A model generated the notes under the pieces. The model was not told where the DNA came from. It saw only the letters and a program-made list of their open reading frames with translations, and searched no databases. This document shows, in pieces, positions 34,028 to 51,680 of a stretch of 64,000 nucleotides of DNA. This DNA is from Pseudolysinimonas sp. (GTDB lineage: Bacteria > Actinomycetota > Actinomycetes > Actinomycetales > Microbacteriaceae). Position numbers and translations under genes: made by a program. Location: assembly GCA_041984585.1 (NCBI GenBank), contig JBHIXX010000007.1:1623-65622 (forward strand), in the 5' to 3' direction. Numbering within the stretch: position 1 is the first letter of the stretch; each line of letters starts with the position of its first letter.

Positions 34028-35943
<1,916 letters not shown>

Positions 35944-43992: not shown

Positions 43993-45855
<1,863 letters not shown>

Positions 45856-46059: not shown

Positions 46060-46223
46060 CCGTGCCACTCCCTGTCATGCCTGGTGTCCCGAATGGTAGC
46101 CAGCCGAACGGGCCCGATCGGCCCGGAAAGCCGCCCCGACGGGGCCGGGAGGGGAGATTCAACAGAGATTAAACATCCGCGTAACACAGTGGCCGCCGAG
46201 GCCCCGGGGAGACGCCGTCCGGG

Positions 46224-46793
46224 TCAGCCCGCGGGGACGTAGTCGGTGCCGAGGAGGATGGTCACCGGCGCGCCGAGGTACGCGTCCGAGAGCACGATCT
46301 CACCCGCGCCGAGCAGCTCCGCGAGGCCCAGCGCGATGCCCTCGTAATCGGTGGTGTGGTAGAAGATCGTCGTCGTCTCCTCGGTGCGGTTCGAGGCGTT
46401 CGCGCGGGCCGGGTCGGGCCAGTTCGCGGCCTCGATCTGGTCGCCCGCCGTGTTCTGCAGCCCCTGGGTCTCGGTGCCGTTGAGCACCGAGATGGTCAGG
46501 TCGAGGTCGGGGTCGACGGTCGAGGGGTCGGTGACCGGCTCGACGGTCTCGGTCGGCTCGGTCGTCGGCTCACCTGTGGTCTCGCCGGCGCCGAAGCTGG
46601 GCAGGTCGAACTGGAAGGTCGGGTCGTAGCGCGACAGCCCGTAGAGTCCGCCGGCGACGAGGATGCCGGTGGCCAGCGCCGCCCAGGCGAACGCGATCCA
46701 GCCGCGACCGCGCGGGGCGGGCGCACGGTGCGCGCCGACCCGGGTGAGGTCGTCGGGGGTCTCGTCGAAGCGATCGGGCGGGAAGGCGGCCAT
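46224..46793 (-). CDS. LytR_C-domain membrane-anchored protein
   Basis: N-terminal TM (WIAFAWAALATGILVAGGLYGL), a Thr/Pro/Glu linker, then ISVLNGTETQGLQNTAGDQI...TILLGTDY, typical of the LytR C-terminal domain. Confidence 0.75.
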   Translation of the reverse strand: MAAFPPDRFDETPDDLTRVGAHRAPAPRGRGWIAFAWAALATGILVAGGLYGLSRYDPTFQFDLPSFGAGETTGEPTTEPTETVEPVTDPSTVDPDLDLTISVLNGTETQGLQNTAGDQIEAANWPDPARANASNRTEETTTIFYHTTDYEGIALGLAELLGAGEIVLSDAYLGAPVTILLGTDYVPAG

Positions 46794-46799
46794 CCGGTC

Positions 46800-47153
46800 T
46801 CAGTCCTGGTGTCGGTGGGATGCGGTCGTGGGACCGGGTCGTGCGGTTCCGCGCGCCGCGCGGCGGTGGTCGCGGAGGCGCTGCAGCCGCCTCACCAGCA
46901 ACGGGTCGTGCCGGAGGGCGGGCGGCGAATCGAGCACCGCATAGAGCATTTGATAGTACCGAGCTGGGGAGACGCCGAACTCGGCCCGGATGGCGGCGTC
47001 GCGCGACCCCTGCGCCGACTCGCGGGCGCGCTCGAAGGCGAGCAGCCGGCGCGCCTGATCGCCGAGGCCCGCGGCATCCGCGGCCGAGCCGGCGGAGCGA
47101 TCCGCCCGGTCGGCGAGGTCGTGCTCCGGGACGTCGGGGGTGGTGGTCGTCAC
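46800..47153 (-). CDS. DUF3263-like protein
   Basis: LLAFERARESAQGSRDAAIRAEFGVSPARYYQMLYAVLDSPPALRHDPLLVRRLQRLRD. GTG at 47153 preceded by GGAGGAGGA. Confidence 0.7.
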   Translation of the reverse strand: MTTTTPDVPEHDLADRADRSAGSAADAAGLGDQARRLLAFERARESAQGSRDAAIRAEFGVSPARYYQMLYAVLDSPPALRHDPLLVRRLQRLRDHRRAARGTARPGPTTASHRHQD

Positions 47154-47175
47154 GTCGTCCTCCTCCGACCCGAGC

Positions 47176-48207
47176 CTAGGCGGCACCACCGGCGCCACCC
47201 GGATGCCCCGACCCGGAGAGCCACGACATCCGGTCGCCGTGCGGGGCGACGTCGGCGATCGGCTCCTCGTCGAGTGAGAGCACGAAGCCGGTGGGGTCGG
47301 GGCAGTCGAGCCGGGCGCGGCGCTCCGCCACCCGCGGCAGCACCCCGCGACCCTCGAGCGCGACCAGCCGCGCCCCGCGGGCGCGCACCGCGTCGGGGAA
47401 CGCGGCGCGCGCCTCCGGGGCGAGGTAGACGAGGGTGCCGAGCGACGCGACCACGAGCTCGGCGTCGGCGGGGGCGCCTGCCAGCGCCGCATCGAGCCCG
47501 GCGAGGGCGTCGCCGCCCACCACCTCCGGCGGATCGCTCCGCGCGGTGGCGAGCGCCGCGCGGAGCCGGGCGCGGCGATCGGGCCGGTCGGCCGGGATGA
47601 GCGCCTCGAGCCAGGCGGCGTCGGTCTCGGGGTGCAGCGGGTCGAGGTCGAGGCCGCGGCGCCACACGATGTCCGGGAGCCGCCGGGGCGCGGCGCCGAC
47701 CCCGCTCACGACGCACTCGACGAGCGGATCGCCGTCGCCCAGGTCGACGGCAGCCCTGTCACCGCCCGGCGCGACGCCCTCCGCTGCCGCGGCGGAGAAC
47801 CGGTAGCGGTAGCGGTCGGGCAGCAGACAGAGTCCCGCCGACGCGCCCACCTCGAGCAGCGCGATCGGCCCGGCGATGCGCGCCAGCGCGGCGACCAGAG
47901 GCGCGCACCTCCCCACCTCGTTGGTCTGGGTGCGGCGGCGCGACGCCTCGTCGACCAGCCGATCGGCGTGGGCGAGCAGCCACTCGCGGAACGCCGGATA
48001 GCCGCCGATCGGCGCGCCGAGCAGGGTCGCGACCGAGAACACGAGCGACGGCTGCCGACGCTCGCGCGGCAGCCGGTCGAGCACGGCGAGCACCTCCGGG
48101 TCGTCGCGGACCCCGGTCGCCCAGGCGACGTGCAGCGCGCTGTGACCCGCCAGGTCGCGCGTCGCCCGGTCGTACCAGTCGGCGGTCGCGCTGCCGTCGG
48201 ATGCCAT
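47176..48207 (-). CDS. DUF2332-like protein
   Basis: ADWYDRATRDLAGHSALHVAW...TQTNEVGRCAPL...LLEVGASAGLCLLPDRYRY. The ATG at 48207 lies inside the 382-aa ORF. Confidence 0.6.
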   Translation of the reverse strand: MASDGSATADWYDRATRDLAGHSALHVAWATGVRDDPEVLAVLDRLPRERRQPSLVFSVATLLGAPIGGYPAFREWLLAHADRLVDEASRRRTQTNEVGRCAPLVAALARIAGPIALLEVGASAGLCLLPDRYRYRFSAAAAEGVAPGGDRAAVDLGDGDPLVECVVSGVGAAPRRLPDIVWRRGLDLDPLHPETDAAWLEALIPADRPDRRARLRAALATARSDPPEVVGGDALAGLDAALAGAPADAELVVASLGTLVYLAPEARAAFPDAVRARGARLVALEGRGVLPRVAERRARLDCPDPTGFVLSLDEEPIADVAPHGDRMSWLSGSGHPGGAGGAA

Positions 48208-48242: not shown

Positions 48243-51008
48243 TCAGGCCGCGCGCCGCCGGAGGAGGACGGCGACCAGGATGGCGACGAGCACCGCGAGG
48301 ACGACGAGCCCGCCGATCACCCACGGCAGCGGGGACGACGCCGAGGCGGGCTCGGCGTCCACCTCCGCACCGTCATCCGTCGTGGCGACCGGCTCGGCGC
48401 AGTCCTCGCCCACGGCGACGACCAGCGTCACCGGGTCGAGCTCGCTGCCCGCCTCGTAGGTGCCGAACGCGGCGGCGCCCGACTCGGTCAGGGTCGCCGG
48501 GATGCCCGCGAGGGTGAGCGACTCGCCCTCGATGACCTCGGCCGCCGCGACGTCGAGGGCGGCGAACTCGATGCCGATCGCCGACACCTCGTCACCCTCC
48601 TGCGTGGTGCCGGTGACATCCAGGAAGAGGATGCCAGTGTCGCCCTCGAGCACGATCCGCGGGTTCGCGATGGTCGTGTCGAGCGCCCCGCCGTGCCCGG
48701 TGAAGCGCACCGACCCGTCGAACGCGAGGTCGGCCAGGGTGCCCTCGGCGGCGAATCCGCCCTCCTCGGTGGTCCAGCCGAAGTTCGGCGTCTCGTAGGT
48801 CGCCCCGTCGGCGACGGTCCACTCGCCGTTGGCGATCGACCCGTCGATGTAGGCGCGGAACGACTCCTTGAAGCCCCAGCTCAGCGCGGCCGCGTCCACC
48901 GGGCAGCCGACCGCATCCGCCGCCGTGATGTCGAGCACGACACCCCGGTCGACCGAGCCCTGGAACGTGAGGGTGTGCTCGCCGGTGAGACCCGACGGCA
49001 GCCGGCCCGACCAGGTGACGACGCCGTCGGCATCCGCGGTCACGTCCTCGGCCAGCACGATCGGGTCCGAGTAGACGACGACCAGGATGCCGTCCTCGTT
49101 CGGCTGGAAGCCGTCCGCCGTGGCGGTGACCTCGCCGCCCTCGGCGGTCCCGCCGGAGACGACGGTGATGCCGGAGTTCGACGGCGGGGTCGCCGCCGGT
49201 CCGCCGGTCGATCCCGTCGACGCCACCGCGAAGGTGTCGAGCGTGAGCGGCGCCCACGCGTCGAGCGTGCGGTTGGTGACCGACAGCCCGTGCGCCGCGA
49301 AGGTGCCCACGCCGTAGTCGCCGCCGAGGCTCATCGCGTTGGCCGGGATCGTCAGCGTGGTCGTGAACGCTCCGCCCGACAGTGCGGATGCCGGAACCCA
49401 GGCGCTGACGATCCAGCCGCTCGAGCCGGGCACCGATCCGGGCTGCCAGGTCGACGACGAGCCGACGACGACGTACACGCCGTTCGCGGCGCCCGCCCCG
49501 GTGTAGCCGCGTCCCGACACGGTGAGGGAGTTCGAGACGGTCGGGTTGACGGTCGACGGGCTCACGCTGAGCGCCACCGAAGCGGGCGCGCCCGGGTCGG
49601 TCGGCGTGCCGCCCCCGCCCCCGCTCCCGCCGTCGTCGACCGCGGCGAAGGTGACCGGGACGAACTGGTCGTACAGGTACGGGTTGTCGGTGTTCGACTC
49701 CGAGAACGCGTGATACAGCCGCACGAACACGCCGCACTGCTCGCCACCATCCGCGGCATCCGCGCACTCGTGCTCACCGAACGACGCCGGCAGATCCATC
49801 TCCACCGAGAACGTCCACCGCCCGTCCGACACCGTGCCCGTCGCCGGAACGTACCCGCCGTACATCGACACCGAACTCACGTACTGCTGCACCGACGACT
49901 CACACGCGTCACCCGTCGCACGACCCGCCGACGACGACCCCGGCGTCTCACCCGGCTCCACACAGAACATCAGGTACACACCCGTCGCGACATCCCCCGA
50001 CGACGTCTCCACCACCGACGGGAACGACCCCGACACCGTCACCGTGTCCCCATCCGCCAGATCCACCGACGGCGACACCTCGATCGAGCCCGAGAGGTCG
50101 GGCTCCGGGTCGCTCTCCGGGTCGGTCTCGGGCCACTCGACCTCGAGCGACACGATCGCGTCGAGGCCGCGCTCGGTGACCGAGCAGCCGTGGGCGCAGA
50201 ACGCGGACACGGAGTAGGCGGTGCCTTCCTGCAGCGTGTCGGCGGGGATCTCGAGCGTGGCCGTGAACGCCCCGTCGGTGATCAGCACGGCCGGAACGAA
50301 GGCCGAGTCGATGAAGTCCTCCGCGTCCGGGGTGCTGCCCGGCGACCACGCCGCGGTCTCGCCCACGTTCACGTAGACGCCGTCGTAGTCGGTCGCGGCG
50401 TCGAAGCCCGACCCGCTGACGGTGACGGTCGCCGCCGCGGTCGGGTCGACCGCGCCCGAGGTCACCGCGAGTGCCGGATCGGCCTCCTCGTCGCCCTCGC
50501 CCGAGCCCTCACCGGAGCCCTCGCCGCCGTCGCCCTCACCGGAGCCCTCGTCGGGCCACGAGACCACGAGCGCGGTCTCGGCGTCGAGGCTGCGGTCGGT
50601 GAGTGAGCAGCCGTGCGCGCAGAACGCCATCACGGAGTACTCGGTGCCCTCCTGCAGGGTGTCGGCCGGGATCGTCAGCGTCGTGCTGAACGCGCCGTCG
50701 ACGATCGAGGCCGTCGGCACGAACGCCGAGTCGATGAACCCCGACGAGGGCGGCGTCGACCCGGGCGACCACATCGAGCTTTCGCCGACGTTGACGTAGA
50801 CGCCCTGGGCGGCCGCGCCGACCTCGAAGCCGGTCCCGCTGACGGTGACGGTCGCCGTCGCGGTCGGGTCGACGGCGCCCGACGGGACGCTCAGCGCGGG
50901 CCCGACGGCGAGGGCCGGGATCGCGGGGATGCCGATGAGGGCGAGGACGGCGCTCAGCAGCAGGGCGAGCAGGACGGCGGCGCGTGGGCGCGCGGGTGCG
51001 TGGGGCAC
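48243..51008 (-). CDS. large secreted, C-terminally membrane-anchored surface protein with three tandem ~115-aa repeats, a Cys-rich domain and an HtaA (heme-transport-associated) domain
   Basis: - GTG start with GGAG 6 nt upstream, and a signal peptide ...IPALAVGP.
- Repeats at aa 38-152, 179-292 and 478-592.
- HtaA signature LSWGFKESFRAYIDGSIANGEW...FDGSVRFTGHGGALDTTIANPRIVL at aa ~705-865.
- The C-terminal WVIGGLVVLAVLVAILVAVLLRRRAA has no LPXTG. Confidence 0.85.
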   Translation of the reverse strand: MPHAPARPRAAVLLALLLSAVLALIGIPAIPALAVGPALSVPSGAVDPTATATVTVSGTGFEVGAAAQGVYVNVGESSMWSPGSTPPSSGFIDSAFVPTASIVDGAFSTTLTIPADTLQEGTEYSVMAFCAHGCSLTDRSLDAETALVVSWPDEGSGEGDGGEGSGEGSGEGDEEADPALAVTSGAVDPTAAATVTVSGSGFDAATDYDGVYVNVGETAAWSPGSTPDAEDFIDSAFVPAVLITDGAFTATLEIPADTLQEGTAYSVSAFCAHGCSVTERGLDAIVSLEVEWPETDPESDPEPDLSGSIEVSPSVDLADGDTVTVSGSFPSVVETSSGDVATGVYLMFCVEPGETPGSSSAGRATGDACESSVQQYVSSVSMYGGYVPATGTVSDGRWTFSVEMDLPASFGEHECADAADGGEQCGVFVRLYHAFSESNTDNPYLYDQFVPVTFAAVDDGGSGGGGGTPTDPGAPASVALSVSPSTVNPTVSNSLTVSGRGYTGAGAANGVYVVVGSSSTWQPGSVPGSSGWIVSAWVPASALSGGAFTTTLTIPANAMSLGGDYGVGTFAAHGLSVTNRTLDAWAPLTLDTFAVASTGSTGGPAATPPSNSGITVVSGGTAEGGEVTATADGFQPNEDGILVVVYSDPIVLAEDVTADADGVVTWSGRLPSGLTGEHTLTFQGSVDRGVVLDITAADAVGCPVDAAALSWGFKESFRAYIDGSIANGEWTVADGATYETPNFGWTTEEGGFAAEGTLADLAFDGSVRFTGHGGALDTTIANPRIVLEGDTGILFLDVTGTTQEGDEVSAIGIEFAALDVAAAEVIEGESLTLAGIPATLTESGAAAFGTYEAGSELDPVTLVVAVGEDCAEPVATTDDGAEVDAEPASASSPLPWVIGGLVVLAVLVAILVAVLLRRRAA
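49233..49577 (-). repeat. intragenic domain repeat 3 (divergent, Cys motif lost: TFAAHGLS)
   Basis: Protein-level alignment: GVYVVVGSSSTWQPGSVPGSSGWIVSAWVPASALSGGAFTTTLTIPANAM...YGVGTFAAHGLSVTNRTLDA. Confidence 0.7.
50133..50474 (-). repeat. intragenic domain repeat 2 (AFCAHGCS motif)
   Basis: GVYVNVGETAAWSPGSTPDAEDFIDSAFVPAVLITDGAFTATLEIPADTLQEGTAYSVSAFCAHGCSVTERGLDA. Confidence 0.8.
50553..50897 (-). repeat. intragenic domain repeat 1 (AFCAHGCS motif)
   Basis: GVYVNVGESSMWSPGSTPPSSGFIDSAFVPTASIVDGAFSTTLTIPADTLQEGTEYSVMAFCAHGCSLTDRSLDA. Confidence 0.8.
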
Positions 51009-51051
51009 GACAGCTCCAGGGGGATGAGCCGGGTAATCCGGCAGGAATGAC

Positions 51052-51070
51052 TTAGCTAAGGCTCAGCTAA
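51052..51070. promoter_or_regulatory. IdeR/DtxR iron box 1
   Basis: TTAGCTAAGGCTCAGCTAA matches the consensus TWAGGTWAGSCTWACCTWA at 16/19 positions, with perfect TTAGCT/AGCTAA arms. It overlaps the putative -10. Confidence 0.75.
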
Positions 51071-51093
51071 CTTCCCTACCCCGGGTTTGTCAA
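51065..51093 (-). promoter_or_regulatory. candidate promoter of the HtaA-domain gene (TTGACA-N17-TTAGCT)
   Basis: The minus strand reads cTTGACAaacccggggtagggaagTTAGCTg. It has a perfect -35 hexamer and 17-nt spacing, and both hexamers are overlapped by the iron boxes. Confidence 0.5.
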
Positions 51094-51110
51094 AGGCAAG
51101 CCTTACCTAA
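51092..51110. promoter_or_regulatory. IdeR/DtxR iron box 2
   Basis: The reverse complement TTAGGTAAGGCTTGCCTTT matches the consensus TWAGGTWAGSCTWACCTWA at 17/19 positions. It abuts and overlaps the -35 TTGACA. Confidence 0.75.
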
Positions 51111-51260
51111 ACAGATCGTTCCACCCGGGTTCGGCGCCGCCCGCGGGCGTTCCGAGGGCGTCACCACCGTCCACCGGGAACGAAACAGAGCCCGCTCCGG
51201 TTGAATGGGGAGACGGGCGAGGGCCGCATCCCCGGCCCCGGACGACGCGGAGGACGCGAC

Positions 51261-51680
51261 ATGGACACCACCGGCAAGCAGTACGCCGTCGACAAGACCG
51301 ACGAGCAGTGGCGCGACGAGCTCGGCGACGAGCAGTACCGCGTGCTGCGCGAGGCGGGCACCGAGCGGGCATGGACGGGCGAGCTGCTCGACGAGCACCG
51401 CTCCGGCCTCTACGCCTGCGGCGCGTGCGGCGCCGAGCTCTTCCAGAGCGGCACCAAGTTCGACTCCGGATGCGGCTGGCCCAGCTTCTACGAGTCGGTG
51501 AAGCCGGAGGCCGTGGAGCTGATCGAGGACACCTCGCTCGGCATGGTGCGCACCGAGGTGCGCTGCGCCAGCTGCGGCTCCCACCTGGGGCACGTCTTCC
51601 CCGACGGCTTCGGCACCCCGACCGGCCTGCGCTACTGCATGAACTCGGTGTCGCTGACGTTCACCGCCGACGAGTCCTGA
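51261..51680 (+). CDS. msrB: peptide-methionine (R)-S-oxide reductase
   Basis: Two CxxC zinc pairs (CGACGAEL and CASCGSHLGHVF) and the catalytic RYCMNS. GGAGGA lies upstream of the ATG at 51261. Confidence 0.9.
   Translation: MDTTGKQYAVDKTDEQWRDELGDEQYRVLREAGTERAWTGELLDEHRSGLYACGACGAELFQSGTKFDSGCGWPSFYESVKPEAVELIEDTSLGMVRTEVRCASCGSHLGHVFPDGFGTPTGLRYCMNSVSLTFTADES

Follow-up and report, generated by a model that had tools for sequence, protein, structure and literature searches.

A 64,000-nucleotide (nt) stretch of DNA from Pseudolysinimonas sp. (Microbacteriaceae; contig JBHIXX010000007.1 of assembly GCA_041984585.1), referred to here as the window, carries two 19-bp sites that are very probably operators of the iron-dependent repressor IdeR/DtxR, placed at the promoter of a gene for a 921-amino acid (aa) protein with an HtaA domain. 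We propose, with a probability of roughly 80%, that Fe-loaded IdeR would repress this HtaA-type gene and that repression would be relieved under iron starvation. Induction by iron starvation is the best prediction because the boxes are unique in the window and recur in relatives, because a cognate IdeR is encoded in the same window, and because the −35 hexamer beside the boxes is conserved. Control of HtaA-family genes by DtxR is textbook knowledge in Corynebacterium; literature searches for IdeR or HtaA in the Microbacteriaceae found no relevant paper.

Two iron boxes upstream of an HtaA-domain gene

The predicted proximal box lies at 51052..51070, 43 nt upstream of the start codon of the HtaA-domain gene, which is encoded on the minus strand. 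On the forward strand it reads TTAGCTAAGGCTCAGCTAA and agrees with the consensus TWAGGTWAGSCTWACCTWA at 16/19 positions (three mismatches); read on the strand of the gene it is TTAGCTGAGCCTTAGCTAA, a symmetric TTAGC...GCTAA variant. The predicted distal box, at 51092..51110 on the same minus strand, overlaps a conserved TTGACA and reads TTAGGTAAGGCTTGCCTTT on the gene strand (the reverse complement of the forward strand), agreeing with the consensus at 17/19 positions (two mismatches). A sequence-only reading of the window had located both boxes and given these match counts, and on re-reading the sequence its coordinates and counts proved correct; its description of an AT-rich patch was likewise borne out, with a GC content of 0.50–0.55 at 51020–51109 against 0.73 window-wide.

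When both strands of the window were searched with up to three mismatches allowed, the two boxes were the sole matches, with 0.00 expected from 100 dinucleotide shuffles. Loosening the cut-off to six mismatches added only 19-mers that overlap the same two boxes, none of them outside 51041–51110. The sequence-only reading had proposed ranking the sites with a position weight matrix, and had named equally good random matches as a finding that would speak against them. A matrix derived from eight DNase-footprinted DtxR sites of C. diphtheriae (PMC524172, Table 1), applied to the ~128,000 positions of the window, ranked the proximal box first (24.5 bits) and the distal box second (21.6 bits), the training sites themselves scoring 16–29 bits; the top score outside 51041–51110 was 6.5 bits, so that the 64 kb holds no random match of equal quality. 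Since they are statistically unique and recur upstream of homologous genes, as described below, the boxes are very probably the IdeR/DtxR operators of the HtaA-domain gene.

Conservation of the boxes among relatives

Homologues of the 921-aa protein are found in Microbacteriaceae, Agromyces, Demequina, Sanguibacter and Aeromicrobium, and were sampled as 80 loci from species-representative genomes (1.12 Mb), which include 70 genes with an intact 5' end. Across this 1.12 Mb there are 89 boxes with up to three mismatches, mostly just upstream of the HtaA-domain gene, and 0 in backward-read control sequences. By a conservative automatic criterion, at least 43 of the 70 genes have a box in the 500 bp that precede the first protein match; six further genes have a box with four mismatches, and in several loci outside the automatic criterion boxes lie at the boundary of the open reading frame (ORF). 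Boxes upstream of HtaA genes span Microbacteriaceae, Agromyces and Aeromicrobium, and two separate boxes were counted by hand, from their positions, in 18 of the 43 box-bearing genes.

A single layout is shared by 19 loci: distal box, TTGACA, N17–19, TANNNT, N4–5, proximal box and short leader, with TTGACA either overlapping the distal box or following it by at most 8 nt. The TANNNT hexamer, the −10 form of these relatives, is TAGGGT, TACGGT or TACGTT. Box-to-box spacing ranges from 25 to 62 bp across lineages, and as it varies without a constant helical phase, neither looping nor cooperation between the boxes is indicated.

Closer to the window, the distal 19-mer is identical, and in the same place, in two relatives (L008 and L011). 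The species-representative collection yielded no near-identical locus, its best matches reaching 53–72% at the protein level, and the only close relative found is a contig of assembly GCA_041941005.1 (L081), which is 98.2% identical over 9 kb and has both boxes and the −35 unchanged.

The picture is not uniform in the sample. Demequina loci are mostly without boxes, and in five of them (L043, L044, L053, L055 and L057) no box with up to four mismatches lies upstream; the homologues encoded there are large, with several CR domains each, and regulation in Demequina may be different. In a few other loci a small, single-CR HtaA paralogue is encoded just upstream of the large gene (L004, 6935–7642; L051, 1135–1869; L074/L075, 6887–7723), with iron boxes situated between the small paralogue and the large HtaA gene.

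The HtaA-domain surface protein

The gene occupies 48243..51008 on the minus strand and begins with a GTG start codon, preceded at a distance of 5 nt by a GGAG Shine-Dalgarno sequence (51014..51017, minus strand) evident from direct reading. The sequence-only reading had described its product as a giant HtaA-domain protein, and the 921-aa ORF does carry one Pfam HtaA domain (PF04213), spanning residues 707–862 and scoring 152.7 bits against a cut-off of 24. The CR domain matches those of C. glutamicum HtaA (6jsa, E = 8e-24) and C. diphtheriae HtaA-CR2 (8smu, E = 4e-23), and in alignment with these structures S715, Y719, G770–H771 and Y850 sit in the CR-domain motifs SFxxY, TGHGG and FxxY. The motif residues serve in CR domains as the propionate Ser, the axial Tyr, the Gly-His helper and the propionate Tyr, respectively (PMC12494546). 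The 921-aa protein thus possesses an axial Tyr with a Ser four residues earlier, together with the Gly-His pair and the propionate Tyr, and among 20 aligned homologues Y719, G770, H771 and Y850 are at least 90% conserved. Its translation further reveals a hydrophobic N-terminal segment that ends in ALA and, at the C terminus, a hydrophobic helix with RRRAA after it, a putative signal and membrane anchor. We regard the product as a predicted HtaA-type heme-binding surface protein.

The rest of the protein includes three copies of a ~109-aa repeat (residues 40–148, 181–289 and 481–589) with a conserved (A/C)AHG motif. The repeat has no match in Pfam and no sequence match in the PDB; its AlphaFold model, with a predicted local distance difference test score (pLDDT) of 93, is a seven-strand immunoglobulin (Ig)-like sandwich for which the PDB offers no match at E ≤ 1e-3. 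SLH-domain proteins (P0020–P0029) contain this module too, and homologues have up to four copies. The idea that the repeats are cryptic HtaA or heme domains is unsupported, given the empty Pfam and PDB searches and a generic Ig-like model, and from that model the repeat is treated as a probable stalk module instead of a heme domain.

The presumed regulator

An IdeR/DtxR-family repressor, the presumed trans-acting factor, is encoded at 34028..34720, 17 kb from the boxes. The sequence-only reading had named this gene as the source of the regulator, and the homologue is real, supported by Pfam and located on the minus strand. Its 230-aa product contains the Fe_dep_repress, Fe_dep_repr_C and DtxR SH3 domains (PF01325, PF02742 and PF18357), that is, the winged helix-turn-helix, the dimerisation and metal-binding domain and the C-terminal SH3-like domain, and matches the IdeR proteins of M. 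tuberculosis (1fx7, E = 6.8e-82) and S. erythraea (7b1v, 1.4e-77).

The alignment to 1fx7 is ungapped across residues 1–104. The DNA-contact residues S37, P39, T40 and Q43 are identical, R27 and R60 are also conserved, and the metal ligands M10, C102, E105 and H106, as well as H79, E83 and H98, are all retained. Judged by this alignment, the residues make up a signature of the Fe type, and in its DNA-reading head the protein does not differ from known IdeR. Directly upstream of the ideR start codon, at 34721–34739, there is a weak box-like 19-mer, GCAGGACAGCCTATCCTCG, which has seven mismatches, scores 6.1 bits and ranks ninth in the window. It is probably insignificant, though autoregulation of ideR at this site may be conceivable.

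The core promoter and an 11-bp deletion

The sequence-only reading had placed a promoter of the form TTGACA-N17-TTAGCT between the boxes. All of its parts are present on the minus strand: TTGACA at 51093..51088, a 17-nt spacer, and TTAGCT at 51070..51065. The last 2 nt of the distal box are its only overlap with TTGACA, and TTAGCT lies wholly within the proximal box. The −35 half of this proposal is well supported, as TTGACA is invariant in six aligned promoters (the window, L081, L007, L008, L010 and L011) and stands beside the distal box in the 19 loci of shared layout. Within the six-promoter alignment both boxes and TTGACA are almost fully invariant and the flanks have diverged, a strong phylogenetic footprint that, at the level of sequence comparison, fixes the −35. 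The −10 half fared less well: the putative −10, TTAGCT, was assigned from its 17-nt distance to the −35 and makes a weak hexamer.

A scan of 50800–51500 for consensus sigma-70 promoters found none, because TTAGCT is a poor −10. The alternative TAGCTG, with an 18-nt spacer, is no good hexamer either, and a search by eye of the window's intergenic region for TANNNT hexamers identified none at a usable distance from TTGACA. The −10-like TAGGGA (51073..51078, minus strand) is only 9 nt from the −35, too near to pair with it, and lacks the terminal T of TANNNT.

TAGGGA lies beside the junction of a deletion that accounts for this arrangement. In the alignment, an 11-bp gap common to the window and L081 (region 51071–51087) takes out exactly the ancestral −10 hexamer, which in the four nearest relatives (L007, L008, L010 and L011) is TACGGT, TACGTT or TACCTT and lies between the boxes. 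The proximal box consequently starts 17 nt after the −35 in the window, versus 28 nt in the four nearest relatives and 23–32 nt in most other loci of the same layout; from centre to centre the boxes are 40 bp apart, versus 51 bp in the nearest relatives and 55–57 bp in many others. On this comparison, an 11-bp deletion specific to the window lineage has moved the proximal box onto the −10 position.

Such a change raises the possibility that the operators are intact and the promoter itself is crippled, in which case transcription of the gene would be poor or would start from another promoter, with the boxes surviving as a partly decoupled relic. That the gap removes precisely the −10 of the nearest relatives, leaving no TANNNT or TATAAT-like hexamer usably spaced from TTGACA, is what such a relic would look like. 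However, codon differences between the window and L081 number 31 synonymous and 18 non-synonymous, and the rough ratio of non-synonymous to synonymous rates (dN/dS) of ~0.2 points to purifying selection on the HtaA gene; a gene kept under purifying selection between the two strains must therefore be expressed. The boxes and −35 are also the same in both strains, and with the proximal box beginning exactly 17 nt past the −35, TTAGCT or TAGCTG could serve as a weak −10. A crippled promoter is thus considered unlikely. A riboswitch or small RNA was dropped as an explanation, an Rfam scan of 50800–51500 having returned no RNA family at E ≤ 1.

The TTAGC...GCTAA variant of the proximal operator

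The proximal box is unusual in more than its position. Among relatives, proximal boxes have C5 in 17/17 cases and G15 in 16/17, whereas distal boxes have the canonical GG/CC, and the proximal operator is kept as TTAGCTnAGCCTTAGCTAA across many genera (L003, L004, L006, L014, L022, L026, L030, L035, L036 and others). In the description of the operator as four repeats, the variant turns the outer CCTAA repeats into GCTAA, a change confined to repeat position 1. In S. erythraea IdeR, this position is contacted by Gln43, which has been argued to bond with whatever base is present; changing C to T at position 1 in all four repeats left affinity unaffected, and the central repeat naturally has G there (PMC8464063). 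In C. diphtheriae this variant, as TTAGCTTAGCCCTAGCTAA, forms the DtxR site predicted for DIP0169 (iutA) (PMC524172), a gene repressed by DtxR and iron (PMC13001254). The mutagenesis of position 1, the versatility of Gln43 and the occurrence of this variant at iutA make the proximal box compatible with IdeR.

Given that a C-to-T change did not alter IdeR affinity, the invariance of C5/G15 may reflect a second constraint. Candidates are a second regulator, a role in the region of the start site, or a tuned site of lower affinity that may give the iron response two thresholds. It is conceivable, then, that one or both boxes, and especially the proximal variant, are read by a second factor or by another DtxR-family paralogue, for instance a manganese sensor resembling MntR; the near-invariance of C5/G15 across many genera and the extra constraint hinted at by the mutagenesis (PMC8464063) would fit such a reader. 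Set against this, the variant box tops the ranking by a DtxR matrix, the iutA gene with the same predicted variant is DtxR-repressed (PMC524172, PMC13001254), the adjacent Peripla_BP_2 gene of relatives, with its own canonical box, points to iron, and the window encodes no further DtxR-family protein. Reading of the boxes by a factor other than IdeR is accordingly very unlikely.

Both peculiarities can be combined into a single account, in which a conserved two-operator design with a constrained proximal variant underwent an 11-bp deletion, about one helical turn, that fused the operator with the −10 while iron control was kept. This account is possible, though on balance doubtful; if true, it would offer a natural example of promoter/operator rewiring with retained iron control.

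Proposed mechanism

From the sites themselves, their recurrence in relatives, the regulator gene and the heme-pocket residues, we infer IdeR binding, the direction of regulation, the start site and the extent of the operon. Fe2+-loaded IdeR, encoded at 34028–34720, would bind both boxes, with two dimers on each. IdeR at the distal box would cover the −35 TTGACA, and IdeR at the proximal box would cover the presumed −10 and the transcription start, so that when iron is plentiful RNA polymerase would be kept off the HtaA-gene promoter. When iron is scarce, apo-IdeR would leave the boxes, allowing transcription of the HtaA gene and possibly of three downstream genes. The magnitude that such control can reach is illustrated by C. 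diphtheriae htaA, for which the log2 change is approximately −7 both with iron and with DtxR (PMC13001254).

Several observations weigh against repression by IdeR as set out here. A −10 is not identifiable, the ancestral TANNNT being deleted and TTAGCT and TAGCTG being poor hexamers. A Pfam scan of the ORFs across the window found no iron or heme gene besides ideR and the HtaA gene, and among these scanned ORFs there is no Peripla_BP_2 or FecCD permease (heme ABC transporter) and no heme oxygenase; linkage to hmuTUV, a typical but not obligatory feature of the HtaA family, is therefore absent from the window. A second DtxR-family paralogue may be encoded elsewhere, the window representing 64 kb of the genome. 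Finally, transcription can also be activated through multiple IdeR/DtxR sites, bfrB and ftn being examples (PMC13001254).

This last point bears on the direction of regulation, since IdeR might activate the HtaA gene in the manner of the tandem sites of mycobacterial bfrA/bfrB and C. diphtheriae ftn. The hallmark of such activated storage genes is the presence of multiple sites upstream of the promoter (PMC13001254), whereas the boxes in the window flank and overlap the core promoter, which makes activation unlikely; moreover, the target is of the acquisition type and not a storage gene, and its Corynebacterium counterpart is repressed by iron ~100-fold (PMC13001254). Taken together, activation appears most improbable, and repression by Fe-IdeR is retained as the preferred mechanism. 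Chance matches, for which only the low GC content of the intergenic patch could be cited, are already refuted by an expectation of 0 and by the retention of the boxes across dozens of genomes while the flanks diverge.

Neighbouring genes

The divergent gene msrB (SelR domain by Pfam) lies at 51261–51680 on the plus strand, with its ATG 150 bp from the distal box, and the sequence-only reading had suggested that the boxes could affect it as well. In Aeromicrobium and Agromyces, however, the boxes stay with the HtaA gene though msrB is not its neighbour, and many Microbacteriaceae have a GNAT gene between the boxes and msrB. As the boxes track the HtaA gene even where msrB is not next to it or the GNAT gene intervenes, they are unlikely to affect msrB. 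The intervening gene, a GNAT-like acetyltransferase, is seen in L003, L014, L020, L022, L026, L029–L032, L035–L037 and L051, and is absent from the window and its nearest relatives. A conserved CCATT(A/C)AAC(T/C)CGG element adjoins msrB in the window (~51195–51210), in its nearest relatives and in the GNAT-bearing ones.

On the other side, the HtaA gene is followed on the minus strand by tightly spaced, co-directional DUF2332, DUF3263 and LytR_C genes (46224..48207, by Pfam and by the gene calls in L081), and then by cpn60. The gaps between the four co-directional genes, HtaA included, are about 35, 22 and 6 nt in the window and L081; each has its own Shine-Dalgarno sequence, and the sole terminator-like hairpin comes after LytR_C, at 46177–46189. 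Read-through into the three downstream genes is plausible because the gaps are short and the only hairpin follows LytR_C. The suggestion that these genes share the iron response of the HtaA gene is accordingly possible for the window, but it does not extend to relatives. DUF2332 follows the HtaA gene in only eight loci, and in many relatives HtaA and DUF3263–LytR_C are kept apart by a convergent Peripla_BP_2 gene that has an iron box of its own; with the linkage interrupted in this way, co-regulation is not conserved.

A third box, canonical in sequence, is present downstream of the HtaA gene in many relatives (L035, 10572–10590; L036, 11084; L004, 11936; L031, 11498; L024, 7155–7160; L025, 11105). 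The L035 copy precedes, at a distance of 18 nt, a divergent gene for a lipoprotein with a Peripla_BP_2 domain, which may, by its domain, bind heme or a siderophore. Control of DUF3263–LytR_C by the third box was considered and rejected on account of this position. Both the Peripla_BP_2 gene and the third box are absent in the window, where DUF2332 takes that position; a search of PDB sequences with DUF2332 gave only noise.

The DUF3263–LytR_C pair (46224–47153) is next to cpn60 (43993–45621) in the window and next to a cold-shock gene in L081. This setting presumably resembles the Rv0430–Rv0431 (VirR) neighbourhood of M. tuberculosis, and any link to iron is speculative.

Significance and comparison with known systems

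The link between DtxR/IdeR and HtaA has been investigated almost exclusively in Corynebacterium; the locus extends it to environmental Microbacteriaceae, Agromyces and Aeromicrobium, which suggests that iron-repressed capture of heme at the cell surface is widespread in non-pathogenic actinobacteria. The conserved operators provide a clean set from which a lineage-specific IdeR matrix could be built, and the 11-bp deletion amounts to a small natural experiment on how the position of an operator relative to the −10 relates to repression.

The closest known systems are the heme-uptake targets of C. diphtheriae, namely the htaA–hmuTUV, htaC, htaB and chtA–chtB promoters. In common with these, the window has an Fe-dependent DtxR/IdeR repressor, a 19-bp palindromic operator at the promoter, and a membrane-anchored HtaA/CR protein with the Ser-x3-Tyr, Gly-His and Tyr residues of the heme pocket. 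It differs in having two operators that flank the core promoter, in a protein with a single CR domain preceded by Ig-like repeats, and in having no adjacent hmuTUV or hmuO in the window; its host belongs to the Microbacteriaceae.

The IdeR systems of M. tuberculosis (1fx7/1u8r) and S. erythraea (7b1v) share the recognition helix, the metal ligands and the four CCTAA-type repeats per operator; unlike the mycobacterial and S. erythraea iron boxes, the proximal operator of the window has GCTAA outer repeats. For this variant the nearest parallel is the site predicted at C. diphtheriae iutA, which has the TTAGC...GCTAA form of the proximal box, yet iutA encodes the substrate-binding protein of a metal ABC transporter and has a single predicted site. 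Promoters with more than one box are known from bfrA, bfrB and ftn, where the sites precede the promoter and switch storage genes on when iron is high, whereas the boxes of the window bracket the −35 and the putative −10 in front of a gene of the acquisition type.

By every sequence-level feature compared here, the locus is a predicted IdeR/DtxR operator pair at an HtaA-family gene. It represents a known type of iron-starvation switch and leaves the current understanding of iron regulation unchanged, the only mildly unusual points being the rewiring of the promoter by 11 bp and the conserved variant of the proximal operator.

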